A DNA stretch of 64,000 bases from Escherichia phage vB_Eco_NicPhage: sequence record OY726582. One strand, 5' to 3'. The position numbers and the translations under genes were made by a program. Below the pieces are notes generated by a model. That model ran no database searches and was not told the origin of the DNA. It saw nothing but the letters and a program-made list of their open reading frames with translations. How positions within the stretch are numbered: position 1 is the first letter of the stretch; each line of letters starts with the position of its first letter. Shown here piece by piece: positions 6,138-47,220 of this stretch.

Positions 6138-6447
6138 CTAGACGGTCCACCATAGAGTTGCATGCTGCCTTATCTTTAGGTTCCGCCACCGAGCATTCTA
6201 ATATTTGCCATTTTTTATAGTATCTTTTAATTAAGGTAGACGCCTTGAACCTACTAGACGCCCCATCTTTTTCTCCGTCTTTATACGCGTATAACAATTT
6301 TTGTGAAAAATCTACTTTACACTCTTGACTTTTACCACAATAATCAGACGCCGTTCTGTTTGTATACTCCGTTACATCAGTATATGTAGTATTAGCAAGA
6401 GCGTTAAATGAAACCAAGCTAACTATTAAAGCCAACATTTTGGTCAT
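6100..6447 (-). CDS. vs: secreted protein, Vs-like (position of T4 vs)
   Basis: 115 aa; signal peptide MTKMLALIVSLVSFNALA; synteny between tk block and regB. Confidence 0.45.
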   Translation of the reverse strand: MTKMLALIVSLVSFNALANTTYTDVTEYTNRTASDYCGKSQECKVDFSQKLLYAYKDGEKDGASSRFKASTLIKRYYKKWQILECSVAEPKDKAACNSMVDRLVDSYNRGLAASD

Positions 6448-6986
6448 TCTTTTATTTCCAGTAGTTTATTTGATTTAAGGTAATTAGCCTTTTCTAGGAC
6501 TTCAGAAGCATATTTACTTCCGGCACTTGTCTTCCATCCCGCATTATATGAGGATATAGCTTTTCTTATATCCCCGTTATGTATATTTAACCAATAAGAA
6601 AATTCGATATAAGCCCATCTGGCTGAATTAGACCGCTTAGATAGCATTTTCTTAATTTGGGCATCAGTCATATTATAACCAAGCTGGTTAATTCTTGCCC
6701 TCATTGTCGGTAGATAATTTTGGAACATTCCATACGCATGGTGACCTTTCTTATCTTTAAGATTAATACCGGCAGATGATTCCTGCCATAGTATTGCGGC
6801 CATTATGTATCCAAGTCCTTTCTTATGCATATTTTCATGCGTTTTAAATTTTCCATCCTTAGAAAACTGTTCCCCAAACTGATAAGCATAATTCAAGTTA
6901 TCGAGTTGGACATTACTAAAAGTATGCTCGGAGCTATGTGCTGATAATGAAAGAGCAAATAGACCAGCGAGTAGTGCTTTTCTCAT
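6444..6986 (-). CDS. secreted lytic transglycosylase (SLT-domain) protein
   Basis: 180 aa; signal peptide; SLT motifs AAILWQESS, GMFQ, SSYNAGW; SD GAGGTAAA. Confidence 0.65.
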   Translation of the reverse strand: MRKALLAGLFALSLSAHSSEHTFSNVQLDNLNYAYQFGEQFSKDGKFKTHENMHKKGLGYIMAAILWQESSAGINLKDKKGHHAYGMFQNYLPTMRARINQLGYNMTDAQIKKMLSKRSNSARWAYIEFSYWLNIHNGDIRKAISSYNAGWKTSAGSKYASEVLEKANYLKSNKLLEIKE

Positions 6987-6994
6987 GTTTACCT

Positions 6995-7453
6995 CTAGAT
7001 TTTAATCACTGCTTTAGAAGCTTTTCCTGGTAGTCGTTTACTGTTAATAATAGCCATTCTACATTGAAGAGTCTTCATTTTGAATGCCGGATTTTCGCGA
7101 CAAACTGTAAGTCCTAACCAAAGATTTCCGTCAGTTATTTCTAAACGGCCTGGGCGATATTCGACACCTTCGACAAAATCTTCATCAACATCTGGACGTG
7201 CCGGCATTGATAAAAATTCTGCAACTTCTTTAACATGATTTTTTACTTTATGAAATAATTCAAAAACGTAATTCTCATCTATTTCTCTCTGGATGGCACG
7301 ATCTAAGAGATGTTGAGAATACTTGATATGAAAGCCTGGTAGTCCAAGAGACTTTGCAGCATCTTTTATACTGGCATTTATTTTGCGGAACTCCGTTTCA
7401 AAGATTCGACGGAGTTTATTACGGCGGATAAAAACGTCTGAATTGATAGTCAT
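6995..7453 (-). CDS. regB: RegB site-specific endoribonuclease
   Basis: 152 aa; high similarity to T4 RegB as recalled (MTIN..VFIRRNKLRR.FE.EFR...YSQHLLDRAIQREIDE); SD GAGGAGAA. Confidence 0.85.
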   Translation of the reverse strand: MTINSDVFIRRNKLRRIFETEFRKINASIKDAAKSLGLPGFHIKYSQHLLDRAIQREIDENYVFELFHKVKNHVKEVAEFLSMPARPDVDEDFVEGVEYRPGRLEITDGNLWLGLTVCRENPAFKMKTLQCRMAIINSKRLPGKASKAVIKI

Positions 7454-7459
7454 TTTGAT

Positions 7460-7510
7460 TTCTCCTCTAGTTGACAGGTCTATAGTAACACAACTAGAGG
7501 AGAAGTAAAC
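7460..7510 (-). promoter_or_regulatory. regB early promoter with anti-SD/SD inverted repeat
   Basis: GTTTAC-TTCTCCTCTAG-(23 bp containing TACTATAGAC)-CTAGAGGAGAA-ATCAAAATG; perfect 11-bp inverted repeat. Confidence 0.6.
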
Positions 7511-7514
7511 TACT

Positions 7515-7730
7515 TTATTGATAAAATGGAGTTAAAGCCCAAGATTCTTTAGATACCATATTGGCGAAATGCCTCATCTCTTCGATTTGGCGACGACGCT
7601 GGTCAGCATAGTCTTCTTCGCCTTCTTCCTTACAATCTTCAAGGTCTTCTTCAAGATACTTTAAGTATTCACTACAAATTTTGTTGACCTTTTCTTGAAA
7701 GTCCAATAACCCAGTAATAGTAGAAGCCAT
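7515..7730 (-). CDS. hypothetical acidic protein
   Basis: 71 aa ORF, start overlaps upstream stop. Confidence 0.45.
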   Translation of the reverse strand: MASTITGLLDFQEKVNKICSEYLKYLEEDLEDCKEEGEEDYADQRRRQIEEMRHFANMVSKESWALTPFYQ

Positions 7731-7996
7731 TAGTATTTTTCCTCAGGTCGAAATACTGCACGACACGCCCACATGCTGGCTTCTTTTAGATGTTGCTTAG
7801 CGTACTTAAGAGCCTGCACTGCATCCATATCTTCTTTGGTTTGTTGCTCTGTTTCATTTTCTTTCAAGATATATGCTTCTTCAATCAGAGCATCAAACAA
7901 CAATCCAAGACGGACTTCTGCATCTTTAATAGCGTTCACTTTACCGATTTTATCATCGGTATGCGGCTTGTAGCCTTTGATGTCTTCAATCGACAT
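7730..7996 (-). CDS. hypothetical protein
   Basis: Track ORF 7730..8164; internal ATG (MSIEDIKGY) with SD GAGGAAA chosen. Confidence 0.45.
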   Translation of the reverse strand: MSIEDIKGYKPHTDDKIGKVNAIKDAEVRLGLLFDALIEEAYILKENETEQQTKEDMDAVQALKYAKQHLKEASMWACRAVFRPEEKY

Positions 7997-8210
7997 AAGG
8001 AATTTCCTCATCGGTGGCAAGGTCATATTCGACCAATTGGATAGGCTCATTAATACCATATCCACGTACAGTGATATCAGTTGTCGGATAGTTTCCAGTA
8101 ATATCACCCATTCTAAATGATTCAATGAATGATTGCTCGCCTGAGCAACTAAACCAGGCGGCAAAACATTTTAAAACATCTTCAGACCCTTCTATAATCA
8201 ATTTAGCCAT
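7986..8210 (-). CDS. hypothetical protein
   Basis: 74 aa; ATG overlaps stop of GrcA-like gene (TAATG coupling). Confidence 0.45.
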   Translation of the reverse strand: MAKLIIEGSEDVLKCFAAWFSCSGEQSFIESFRMGDITGNYPTTDITVRGYGINEPIQLVEYDLATDEEIPYVD

Positions 8211-8572
8211 TATAGACTCTCAGTAAAGGTACGAGCGATAACGTCGCGCTGCTGTTCTGGAGTCAGAGAGTTAAAGCGAACTGCATAACCGGATACACGG
8301 ATGGTCAGCTGCGGATATTTTTCTGGATGCTTAACTGCATCTTCTAGAGTTTCACGACGCAGAACGTTAACGTTCAGATGTTGACCACCTTCAATTTTAA
8401 CTTTAGGGTGATGTTCAATTTCAATTTCACGGGCATGCAAACCGTAGAAAATTTCCGGGTCTACAATAGCGTCTTCTTTAAAAGTCTTAGAGACAATAAT
8501 CCGGGCTTGAGTACCGTCTTCAAAATAAATAGTGCCTTTGTGTGTGCCTTCAAGAATTTGATATGCTTTCAT
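8210..8572 (-). CDS. grcA: autonomous glycyl radical cofactor (GrcA/YfiD-like)
   Basis: 120 aa; C-terminus ...[59 protein letters not shown] carries the glycyl-radical RVSGY motif and matches E. coli GrcA as recalled. Confidence 0.85.
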
Positions 8573-8578
8573 ATAACC

Positions 8579-8887
8579 TCAATTAGAAAATAAATTTATC
8601 CAAGTTTTTTCTTTAATCAAAAATGGGTCGGAATTAAACGCCATTAAACTTTGAGTGATTAATCCCTTAAATGGCCCATCAATAAATTCCATTTTGAAAT
8701 GTGGAATACTAGTCATCAGTCGTGCATTAGGAGCAGTACAAAGAACCTGCTGACCTGCGAACGGACCTTTAGTCAAACGATATCGTTTAGGTTTAAAATG
8801 GTAAATCTCATAATTTTCTACAAGAGCCCTTTTATTGCATACCGGGCTATTATAACAATATTCAAAAACTTCAATAGTGGTCATCAT
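8579..8887 (-). CDS. hypothetical protein
   Basis: Track ORF 8579..8950; internal ATG (MMTTIEV) overlaps upstream stop, SD GGAATG. Confidence 0.45.
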   Translation of the reverse strand: MMTTIEVFEYCYNSPVCNKRALVENYEIYHFKPKRYRLTKGPFAGQQVLCTAPNARLMTSIPHFKMEFIDGPFKGLITQSLMAFNSDPFLIKEKTWINLFSN

Positions 8888-9423
8888 TGCATTCCAATCA
8901 CAAAAAATTGAGGACGAGCAATACCGCCGTTGCAATATTTGCTTTTGCAACAGTGTTGGACTGTTTTAATATGTACATTGTAAATCTTATCCATATCAGG
9001 AGCTTTAATAGGCTCGTCAATTATATACAGAATACGAGAAAGCGTTAATCCACGGAATTTAGAACCTTCATTGCCAATAAAACTACGAACAGAATCAGTA
9101 AATAAACGGAATCGAATATCGTCGCTAGAATAACGAGAAAATTCTTTTTCAATGTTGCCAGCAGAAATTTTAGCATAAGCTGAAGTATTAGAAAGAACAA
9201 TAACCGTTCCACCATCATACAGCCAATTAGCAGCAAAGTTAGTCACAGCAATTGATTTACCTGATTGTCGGCCGCCGTCTAAACGAAGTGTACAGTACTG
9301 CTTGAGTACGTCTTCAAATGGTGGGACATAACCGTTCTTACAAATTTCTTCTACTCTAGCATCAGAATGGTGTGTAAAAGCATTCATCAGGGATAGATAA
9401 GGTCCAGTTAAAAATGTTCTCAT
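8884..9423 (-). CDS. P-loop protein (Walker A GRQSGKS)
   Basis: Track ORF 8884..9459; ATG at 9423 (MRTFLTGPY) chosen; contains LDGGRQSGKSIAV. Confidence 0.45.
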   Translation of the reverse strand: MRTFLTGPYLSLMNAFTHHSDARVEEICKNGYVPPFEDVLKQYCTLRLDGGRQSGKSIAVTNFAANWLYDGGTVIVLSNTSAYAKISAGNIEKEFSRYSSDDIRFRLFTDSVRSFIGNEGSKFRGLTLSRILYIIDEPIKAPDMDKIYNVHIKTVQHCCKSKYCNGGIARPQFFVIGMQ

Positions 9424-9599
9424 ATTATTTCTCTTAAGGTTTGGGCCATTCCGTGGCACATGTTAGGTCCTTCGACTCGCTATGTAAACCCATTACCGCA
9501 TTGCGCTCGACCTTATTACAGGTTGGAAAAGGTACATCACTCAGAGGACTCGACGTTCATGAGGAGAGGTTGCGTTCCCCTTTATTAGACAGGAATTAT

Positions 9600-9860
9600 T
9601 TAAGCTTTACCACCAGAAACAATTCCAAAGTTATCAAAATCGTATTCAATATCATCAGCATCCACTTTAGGTCCCGCTACGATGTATGCGATTTCGCGGC
9701 GCTTTGCATAGGTATTGATTTCTTTACCGTCACCACCTAAGAAAGAATATCCATTACGTTTTAATGAGCCAAAGTCTTCAGCATCACCTGCGAATGCTTT
9801 AACTTTAAATTTAGGGCCTTTAACGACTGCTTCTGTGATAAATTCTTGATACGTTTTCAT
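9600..9860 (-). CDS. internal protein (IP family, capsid-targeting leader MKTYQEFITE)
   Basis: Track ORF 9600..9872; start placed at MKTYQEF, the conserved T-even internal-protein leader cleaved by the prohead protease. Confidence 0.6.
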   Translation of the reverse strand: MKTYQEFITEAVVKGPKFKVKAFAGDAEDFGSLKRNGYSFLGGDGKEINTYAKRREIAYIVAGPKVDADDIEYDFDNFGIVSGGKA

Positions 9861-9875
9861 TTTTATGTCCATTAG

Positions 9876-10289
9876 TTAGTAAATTGATTTGCCATAATAT
9901 TTGTACCAAGACGGCCGTTGAGCAATTTTTTCATCTAAGCGTGCTTGACTTATCGCAATGGACGCTTCGGACGGGTCATAATTATTACGAAATTCGGCAG
10001 GGATGTCGGAAATATCCTGGACTGTCGTGTCCTTGATTTTGAAACCACGTTTCAAGCATTCAGCGATTAGCTCGATTTGACGTAAACGTAAAAATTCGAG
10101 TTTGTCGTAAAAGAATGTTACGTGACCTGTGCCTAAGATAAATGTTGGAGGGATTTTAAAATCCTTTACACGTTTACCGTTTTGAACATGTTTACGGACT
10201 GCACCAAATACGCGTGGTAATTCACGATACTCAGCCATAAGATGTTGGTCGGCCAGTTCAGAAACAAGTGTTAAATTGATACGGGTCAT
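9876..10289 (-). CDS. denV: endonuclease V (pyrimidine-dimer DNA glycosylase)
   Basis: Near-identity to T4 EndoV from [28 protein letters not shown] onward as recalled; start moved to that ATG. Confidence 0.9.
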
Positions 10290-10347
10290 AATTTCCTCCA
10301 AGTAGTTGATGAATGTATAGTATCAAAGTCCTTGGAGGAAGTAAACA

Positions 10348-10629
10348 CTATTTTTCTGAAGCGCCTGAAATATATTTTTCAAGACGTTGTTTCATTAGCG
10401 AGCCGTTCTTAGCGATTTCTTCCGGTTTATCGCACATACGTAACAAGGCTTCAAGCTTAGCGATATCGCTGGTACGTTCAAATTTGCGAGTATCTATCTT
10501 ACTAGCAAGTTCAGAAATACGTGCTAATAGACTTTCGGCTTCAACCAAAGCTGCACCTAGCTTAGTTGCAAATGTGTCAGTAGCTTCGTTAAGAATAGAT
10601 TCTGATAAAAATTCACTATATGTTTTCAT
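10348..10629 (-). CDS. internal protein (IP family, leader [10 protein letters not shown])
   Basis: Track ORF 10348..10644; IP-type leader at internal ATG immediately after lysozyme stop. Confidence 0.55.
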
Positions 10630-20043: not shown

Positions 20044-20120
<77 letters not shown>

Positions 20121-20123
20121 GAT

Positions 20124-20200
20124 TGGTGACCCAGACCAGATTCGAACTGGTAACCTTTCCCTTATGAGGGGACTGCTGCTAACCGTTGAGCTACAGGGCC
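20124..20200 (-). tRNA. tRNA with CAU anticodon (Ile2-type or Met)
   Basis: 77-nt cloverleaf: GGCCCTG acceptor, anticodon loop CUCAUAA, T-arm ACCAG-TTCGAAT-CTGGT, encoded CCA; 5' half resembles E. coli ileX as recalled. Confidence 0.75.
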
Positions 20201-43942: not shown

Positions 43943-44894
43943 ATGATGTTTGGTTATTTTTACAACTCGTCGTTCAGGCGATATATCACAATGATGGGCG
44001 ATTTGTTTTCAAATATCCAAGTTAACCGTCAATTGTCTACAGGCAATAAATTAATTAGAGTTCCTATTACGTATGCATCTAAAGAGCACTTTATGATGAA
44101 ACTTAATAAATGGACCTCTATAAACTCACAAGAAGATGTGGCTAAAGTCGAAACTATTCTACCACGTATAAATCTCCAAATGGTGGATTTCGTTTATAAC
44201 CCAACGTTTAAAACGAATATATTGAATAACTCTCTTTTGAGTAAATCGACTAAGGATATTGTAGACCAATACAACCCATCACCAATTAAAATGATTTTTG
44301 AACTGAGCATCTTTACTCGTTATGAAGATGATATGTTCCAAATCGTTGAGCAAATTATTCCATATTTTCAGCCGCATTTTAATACGACTATGATTGAGCA
44401 ATATGGGCAGGATATTCCATTTGAAAGGGATATTAAAGTCGTATGGATGGCAGCAGCAATGGATGAACAAATAGACGGTGATAATTTATCTCGTCGACGT
44501 TTAGAGTGGTCATTAACATTTGAAGTAAATGGATGGATGTATCCTCCGGTAGGCGCAGCTGAAGGCCTTATTAAAACGACTTATCTTGATTTTCATGCTA
44601 AACGGTGATAATTTATCTCGTCGACGTTTAGAGTGGTCATTAACATTTGAAGTAAATGGATGGATGTATCCTCCGGTAGGCGCAGCTGAAGGCCTTATTA
44701 AAACGACTTATCTTGATTTTCATGCTAATGAACGAGACCTTCAAACAGCCGCCAGTGTTTTTGAATCAGTTGATACAGAAATTAAACCGAGAGACGTTGA
44801 AGCACAAGATTGGAATGGTGAAGTTGAACAAACTTATACTCATGATATTCCAATCCCGTCTCCACCAACCCCTCCTGGTCCTAGAAAACAATAA
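43943..44894 (+). pseudogene. 15: gene 15 (tail sheath stabiliser / tail terminator) split by a 127-bp tandem duplication; frames 43943..44608 and 44586..44894
   Basis: The peptide GDNLSRRRLEWSLTFEVNGWMYPPVGAAEGLIKTTYLDFHA occurs at the end of one track ORF and the start of the next in a different frame; removing one copy restores a single ORF of about 274 aa (T4 gp15 about 272 aa). Confidence 0.75.
44475..44728 (+). repeat. perfect tandem direct duplication, 2 x 127 bp, inside gene 15
   Basis: 44475..44601 is identical to 44602..44728 by direct reading; unit length is not a multiple of 3. Confidence 0.9.
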
Positions 44895-44903
44895 GAGGTA
44901 AAT

Positions 44904-47220
<2,317 letters not shown>

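Follow-up and report, generated by a model that had tools for sequence, protein, structure and literature searches.

A vs.6 gene of an Escherichia phage encoding a GrcA-like glycyl-radical cofactor with a radical domain probably copied from host grcA

What is a protein of 120 amino acids, the C-terminal half of which reads like a piece of an Escherichia coli protein, doing in the genome of a T4-like phage, which enzyme could it serve there, and does its resemblance to the host protein go back to constraint on the amino acid sequence or to an exchange of DNA? These questions are raised by a small open reading frame of Escherichia phage vB_Eco_NicPhage (sequence record OY726582). The stretch of DNA that was analysed as a whole comprises 64,000 nucleotides and is referred to as the window.

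The gene, its neighbours and its protein family

The window corresponds to positions 54811-118810 of Shigella phage JK42 and extends from nrdC.10 through tk, vs, regB, denV, e and tRNAs to baseplate and head genes. The 2 kb surrounding the open reading frame are 99.9% identical to JK42 and 97.9% identical to RB69, both of which belong to Mosigvirus, and the order vs.7 - vs.6 - vs.5 is common to the window, RB69, T2 and T4. The encoded protein is matched over its full length, i.e., residues 1-120, by phrog_1209 (E = 1.3e-62). Judged from synteny and sequence, the open reading frame is the vs.6 ortholog, a full-length member of phrog_1209 and a gene that is already known; the RefSeq name for vs.6 in T4, T2 and RB69 is 'autonomous glycyl radical cofactor GrcA'. 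The features of the locus are as follows:

8210..8572, minus strand: open reading frame for 120 amino acids, vs.6 ortholog, with ATG start and TAA stop, assigned by Gly_radical, TIGR04365, phrog_1209 and synteny
8393..8572, minus strand: codons 1-60, N-terminal half of the phage type, homologous to the disordered half of GrcA but diverged (50% nucleotide identity and 18/60 identical amino acids compared with E. coli grcA)
8222..8392, minus strand: codons 61-117, host-derived patch for the structured glycyl-radical domain, near-identical to Escherichia grcA on the nucleotide level
8285..8299, minus strand: RVSGY glycyl-radical motif, residues 92-96, identified in the translated sequence, which was aligned with GrcA G102 and PflB G734
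8288-8290, minus strand: radical glycine G95, equivalent to GrcA G102
8577..8580, minus strand: Shine-Dalgarno-like GAGG, separated from the ATG by 4 nt and overlapping the vs.7 stop codon, read directly from the sequence
8579..8887, minus strand: vs.7 ortholog, upstream neighbour, according to the annotation of JK42 and RB69
7986..8210, minus strand: vs.5 ortholog, downstream neighbour, the start of which shares 1 nt with the vs.6 stop, according to open reading frames and the annotation of JK42/RB69

A promoter/terminator scan of positions 7400-10400 revealed no convincing promoter directly upstream of vs.6 and no excess over shuffled sequences; its sole promoter site, TTTACA-17-TAACAT at 9488-9460 upstream of vs.8, is weak. 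WWTGCTTWA, the pattern of the T4 middle promoter (MotA box), occurs 26 times in the whole window compared with 11.2 copies expected from shuffles, none of 100 shuffles reaching 26, and no copy is present on the minus strand between 8573 and 9600, i.e., from vs.6 to the intergenic gap at 9424-9599. As to the neighbouring genes, the orthologs of vs.1, vs.7 and vs.8 (window 6444-6986 and 8579-9423, minus strand) are labelled 'endoribonuclease' in JK42 and hypothetical in RB69, T2 and T4, while the vs.1 equivalent of phage KP182 is named lytic transglycosylase domain protein; the labels in JK42 seem to have been carried over from the annotation of the adjacent regB. Two adjacent phage tRNA genes, tRNA-Arg(TCT) and tRNA-Met(CAT), were detected by ARAGORN at window positions 20044-20200 (minus strand), in agreement with the annotation of JK42 apart from an offset of a few bases.

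An initial annotation, made from the sequence alone, had described the protein as a GrcA-like glycyl-radical cofactor, and family searches bear this out. Pfam Gly_radical matches residues 60-101 with the C-terminal end of the model (E = 2e-18), the best match in the PDB is the NMR structure of GrcA, 6OWR (phmmer, E = 3.5e-42), followed by PflB, 1H16 (E = 6.7e-27), and TIGR04365, 'autonomous glycyl radical cofactor GrcA', ranks first among the NCBIfam models, with 158.5 bits and an alignment starting at residue 18 (profile position 23). This score stays below the equivalog cut-off of 170 bits set for TIGR04365, which E. coli GrcA surpasses with 233.9 bits; the experimentally validated T4 protein misses it as well (151.1 bits), and we ascribe the shortfall to the diverged N-terminal half and not to a different function. 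Like E. coli GrcA (YfiD, 6OWR), the phage protein is small (~14 kDa) and stands alone, consists essentially of a glycyl-radical domain and possesses a homologous N-terminal half. The domain is of the PFL type, featuring RVSGY with the radical glycine and homology to residues 693-759 of PflB. Unlike its host counterpart, the phage protein has an N-terminal half that is 7 residues shorter, and its gene resides in an early-region gene block of the phage, away from the regulation that acts on host grcA.

Global alignment with E. coli GrcA (127 amino acids, from NZ_CP023386.1) places residues 61-120 against GrcA residues 68-127, with 60 of 60 positions identical. The resemblance of the C-terminal ~60 residues including RVSGY, given in the initial annotation as almost residue for residue, proved complete, and the match is far beyond chance. 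The C-terminal domains of PflB (residues 693-759) and TdcE contain the same domain and motif at only 80% and 78% amino acid identity over the last 60 residues, respectively. The 60-residue domain comprises 35 columns that are invariant across all homologs, and the columns of RVSGY do not vary among 15 homologs from phages and bacteria. That the N-terminal half differs, as also claimed earlier, is evident from 18 identical aligned positions among its 60 residues; homology to the disordered half of GrcA is nonetheless recognizable, though at only ~30% identity, with Q5, A/V-R, IV-K, D34 and R48 as well as ED and RE among the positions kept with bacterial GrcA. A single-sequence AlphaFold2 model of the protein reached a mean pLDDT of 35.8, too low to inform on folding of the N-terminal half. 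Homologs were found in 1588 phage records, covering T4-like phages of Escherichia, Klebsiella, Enterobacter, Cronobacter, Citrobacter and Aeromonas and also T5-like phages, and the start MKAYQ is common to T4-like and T5-like phages.

Predicted role as a spare part for pyruvate formate-lyase

The protein encoded in the window shares 94.2% amino acid identity with the vs.6 protein of T4 (NP_049730.1), and all differences but one are located in the N-terminal half, where six substitutions occur; the remaining one concerns residue 73, an arginine in the window and a histidine in T4. The T4 vs.6 product, which on the basis of established naming and RefSeq annotation we take to be Y06I, likewise is encoded between denV and regB, consists of 120 amino acids and ends in a host-like domain.

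As reported in PMC8683613, Wagner et al. (2001, pmid 11444864) showed that T4 Y06I as well as E. coli YfiD receive a glycyl radical from the PFL activating enzyme, and both proteins are described there and in PMC13450708 as forming a complex with oxygen-cleaved PFL and restoring its activity. Repair of PflB, as the initial annotation had envisaged it, has consequently been demonstrated biochemically for the 94%-identical T4 ortholog and is already published (Wagner et al., 2001, as cited in PMC8683613). In YfiD, residues 1-60 are disordered and promote binding to cleaved PFL and installation of the radical, while residues 61-127 bear the radical and are folded like PFL residues 693-759 (PMC8683613). 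To T4 specialists, both the gene and its biochemistry are textbook matter, and the identity of the protein is no new question.

For the phage under study, these data suggest that host PflA would put the radical on Gly95 of the phage protein and that residues ~54-120, predicted to share the fold of PflB residues 693-759, would dock into host PflB molecules that have lost their own radical domain by oxygen cleavage at Gly734. The Gly95 radical would then regenerate the thiyl radical at Cys419, and conversion of pyruvate to acetyl-CoA and formate could resume. The diverged N-terminal half would be the counterpart of the disordered half of GrcA and would aid both binding of cleaved PflB and radical installation. 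Infection by a T4-type phage presumably entails shut-off of host expression and degradation of host DNA, such that neither new host GrcA nor new PflB would be formed, and a spare part supplied by the phage may keep fermentative provision of ATP and acetyl-CoA going when oxygen is low or fluctuating.

Among the roles considered, PflA-dependent spare-part rescue of PflB is the best supported because the docking domain is letter-for-letter that of GrcA and the N-terminal half is homologous. From the 94% identity to the T4 protein and the identical docking domain we infer that the window protein itself is activated by PflA and rescues PflB; as its N-terminal half is strongly unlike that of GrcA, where this half matters for binding, its quantitative behaviour could differ. 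Compared with E. coli grcA, the last 60 codons exhibit no nonsynonymous and seven synonymous changes, indicative of purifying selection. Taken together, it is very probable that the open reading frame is the Mosigvirus vs.6 ortholog and encodes an autonomous glycyl-radical cofactor that, by homology, rescues PflB and whose radical domain was copied from host grcA. In the literature searched, no report was found on an in vivo benefit of vs.6 to any phage, be it in terms of burst size or of oxygen dependence.

Other enzymes of the formate-lyase type might be served besides or instead of PflB, mainly TdcE, the 2-ketobutyrate/pyruvate formate-lyase. The identity of the last 60 residues to TdcE, 78%, almost equals that to PflB, and homologs from T5-like phages carry residues resembling those of TdcE/PflB (NALTREQQ.DVISRTFTQAM). 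The window protein, however, copies GrcA exactly and not TdcE, and rescue of PFL is the only one that has been demonstrated for any spare-part protein (PMC13450708, PMC8683613), which renders this extension rather unlikely. Strong divergence of the N-terminal half, which governs binding to cleaved PFL in GrcA, could also be taken as a sign of an antagonist or decoy that titrates PflA or occupies PflB and thereby diverts host fermentation or brings it to a halt. A radical glycine and a whole docking domain identical to those of functional host GrcA would be superfluous in a decoy, and according to PMC8683613 PFL regains activity in vitro with the T4 ortholog, so that we regard such a role as highly unlikely.

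The initial annotation had furthermore named the anaerobic ribonucleotide reductase NrdD as a possible beneficiary, and the phage does have its own: NrdD and NrdG are encoded ~16 kb away (JK42 44406-46690, outside the window), so that the protein could conceivably repair or supplement phage NrdD, possibly after activation by NrdG. This part of the claim found no support. BLASTP detects no similarity to NrdD of JK42 (E = 9.1, with the RVSGY region unaligned), the NrdD family is absent among the NCBIfam hits of the window protein, and the C-terminal domain reproduces the PFL-type domain of GrcA without any difference. Class III ribonucleotide reductases are without a known spare part, and reviews regard spare parts as validated for PFL only (PMC13450708, PMC8683613). 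Neither is vs.6 adjacent to nrdDG in T4, RB69 or the window. The arrangement in Aeromonas phage phiAS5 (NC_014636.1 122324-122701) speaks in favour of a connection, as a distant homolog with 45% amino acid identity and the motif RISGY is located directly after nrdG, the end of which it overlaps by 4 nt, and before nrdC/nrdH; it is the only gene-neighbourhood hint that links a phage spare-part protein to anaerobic ribonucleotide reductase. All in all, a function in the repair of NrdD is very improbable for the window protein, and rescue of PflB remains the preferred reading.

A host-like patch at the DNA level

Over its last 60 codons, vs.6 shares 96.1% nucleotide identity with E. coli grcA in the window, 97.2% in RB69, 97.8% in T2, 98.3% in T4 and 99.5% in phage OES_C-2, values that lend weight to the earlier view of the C-terminal module as host-derived. 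Exact matches to E. coli grcA measure 172 nt (T2), 138 nt (T4), 134 nt (RB69) and 65 nt (window), and identical codons amount to 53 of 60 in the window, 56 of 60 in T2 and 59 of 60 in OES_C-2. Identity to grcA collapses directly upstream of codon 61 (EGGQHLN), the N-terminal half being 50% identical. At the other end, it stops 0-4 codons before the stop codon, with an end-point that varies among phages, and no similarity to the grcA region was found downstream of the vs.6 stop. The grcA genes of Citrobacter, Klebsiella pneumoniae and Salmonella are 92.8%, 88.3% and 83.9% identical to that of E. coli, respectively, such that the phage segment is closer to it than any of these. In a neighbour-joining tree of a 168-nt core, the window sequence groups with Escherichia grcA in 295 of 300 bootstraps. 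Genes for PflB and TdcE were considered as donors and rejected, with 77% and 72% nucleotide identity, respectively, versus 96% for grcA.

OES_C-2, an Escherichia phage of the Tequatrovirus type, deserves separate mention as it possesses the most host-like copy seen (PQ642263.1 63817-64173). Its vs.6 allele has a deletion of two codons in the N-terminal half and encodes 118 amino acids, and its patch extends as far as the stop codon, differing from E. coli grcA at only one of 185 nt (99.5% identity).

Could the host-like C-terminus be the outcome of purifying selection only, acting on an anciently acquired gene in which no recent exchange with host DNA took place? Extreme conservation of the 60-residue domain, with its 35 invariant columns, would fit such a history. 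Synonymous sites refute it: in Cronobacter phage leB, an identical sequence of 60 amino acids is encoded with only 33 of 60 codons shared with E. coli grcA (83.9% nucleotide identity), as opposed to 53-59 of 60 in the E. coli phages, and protein constraint is therefore not the explanation of the nucleotide identity observed in the latter. The 172-nt exact match of T2 is likewise at odds with selection on the protein, as is a jump in GC content at third codon positions (GC3) that coincides with the boundary and tracks the host. In E. coli phages, GC3 is 18-28% before the boundary and 35-45% after it, the N-terminal half of the window gene being at 28%; the corresponding values for Klebsiella phages are 23% and 60-63%, and the 3' halves of host grcA are at 43% in E. 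coli and 67% in Klebsiella. Since Klebsiella phages moreover match grcA of K. pneumoniae instead of that of E. coli, an origin by purifying selection on an old gene has a very low probability.

Exchange of DNA with the host is thus the preferred explanation, and its direction can be read from the two halves of the genes. The 5' and 3' halves of bacterial grcA diverge evenly between species, and only the phage genes are mosaic; together with the shift of GC3 towards the host in the phage patch, this argues for transfer from host to phage. Transfer from phage to host was rejected on the grounds of the same even divergence of the bacterial halves and of a patch GC3 that tracks the host. In the E. 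coli phages, the patch appears to have been copied from host grcA visibly recently. The patch of the window contains four third-position changes in addition to those of T4, all of them to A or T, which is consistent with drift to phage composition after transfer.

Host-specific versions of the patch and their possible origin

Jiaodavirus phages of Klebsiella, represented by KP182 and Nispero, possess a vs.6 gene with the same break-points, and their patch encodes residues of the Klebsiella type (LLDAVEH) and is 91-97% identical to grcA of K. pneumoniae and 83-85% identical to that of E. coli. Megablast searches with the host genes yielded a reciprocal picture. Nucleotides 200-384 of E. coli grcA matched 638 phage records at 95% identity or above, stemming from Tequatrovirus/Mosigvirus, and Klebsiella phages at only 85-89%. 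Nucleotides 202-369/374 of K. pneumoniae grcA matched 106 phage records from Jiaodavirus at 95-99%, and E. coli phages at only 85-88%. As controls, grcA of Salmonella found its best phage match at 83.8%, with none reaching 95%, and grcA of Enterobacter reached 86.3% at best among the matches listed, with one other record in the 90-95% band and none at 95%; patches derived from either of these two genes were accordingly not found in phages.

A host patch on the nucleotide level is likewise absent from the homologs in T5-like phages, Krischvirus, Slopekvirus, Karamvirus, Pseudotevenvirus and Aeromonas phages, which exhibit 58-85% identity. Among them, the homologs of T5-like phage AKFV33 (27054-27422), adjoining a tRNA cluster, and of Salmonella phage LmqsSP1 combine the MKAYQ N-terminus with C-terminal residues, NALTREQQNDVISRTFTQAM, that are nearer to PflB/TdcE than to GrcA (71-76% nucleotide identity, without host patch). 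Klebsiella phage 05F, a Slopekvirus, encodes a 60-residue domain of the Klebsiella type with 100% amino acid identity and only 80% nucleotide identity to K. pneumoniae grcA, which means that either an old transfer has been ameliorated or the phage protein has converged on the sequence of its host counterpart.

On the level of sequence, these data show that recombination has brought a copy of the radical domain (codons 61-117) from host grcA into the phage gene, in E. coli phages and Klebsiella phages independently, and this keeps the domain identical to host GrcA. Overwriting from the host gene has thus occurred at least twice, and the varying 3' end-points in E. coli phages suggest either several events or a subsequent exchange between alleles of different phages. 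The source may have been pieces of degraded host DNA, by homologous recombination with the phage gene. Once present, a patch with long perfect homology should favour further conversion, leading to concerted evolution with the host ortholog. On balance, we lean towards the view that the phage gene evolves in concert with host grcA, in that a segment of ~170 nt, coding for the domain predicted to dock into host PflB and to be recognised by host PflA, is repeatedly overwritten during infection and each lineage carries the exact version of its current host genus. The 638 and 106 genus-specific records, the varying 3' end-points and the retention of the phage N-terminal half throughout may all be accommodated in this way. 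No description of a host-specific nucleotide patch or of concerted evolution was found in the literature searched, the coverage of which is incomplete for key older papers.

Intragenic recombination between host and phage has been reported in psbA of cyanophages. By analogy, psbA resembles vs.6 as a phage copy of a damage-prone host component that keeps a host energy pathway running after shut-off; it differs in that protein and pathway are unrelated and that in vs.6 only the domain docking to the host enzyme is exchanged. The vs.6 patch represents a clean example of host-to-phage gene conversion that is confined to one domain of an auxiliary metabolic gene. It could mark the recent host history of T4-like phages and offer a model for the homogenisation of phage and host genes. 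Judged from the sequences, the host-genus-specific nucleotide patch is a genuine and tidy feature of the gene's evolution that goes beyond existing annotations and is of modest interest.

When the window was compared by megablast with 5426 E. coli genomes, grcA was matched at 8202/8205-8394 with ~95-96% identity. For window positions 1-22000, all matches listed (best place per genome) fell within 8202-8395 and lay on grcA or pflB, while positions 21000-43000 and 42000-64000 produced no match to any of the 5426 genomes. Among the matches listed, the 3' half of vs.6 thus is the sole part of the window with megablast similarity to E. coli chromosomes. In a collection of plasmids, grcA was present on NZ_CP170105.1, NZ_CP093490.1 (Klebsiella) and CP125156.1 (5.37 Mb), records that are very large or contain chromosomal neighbours (srmB) and that probably are mislabelled chromosomal fragments or chromids.
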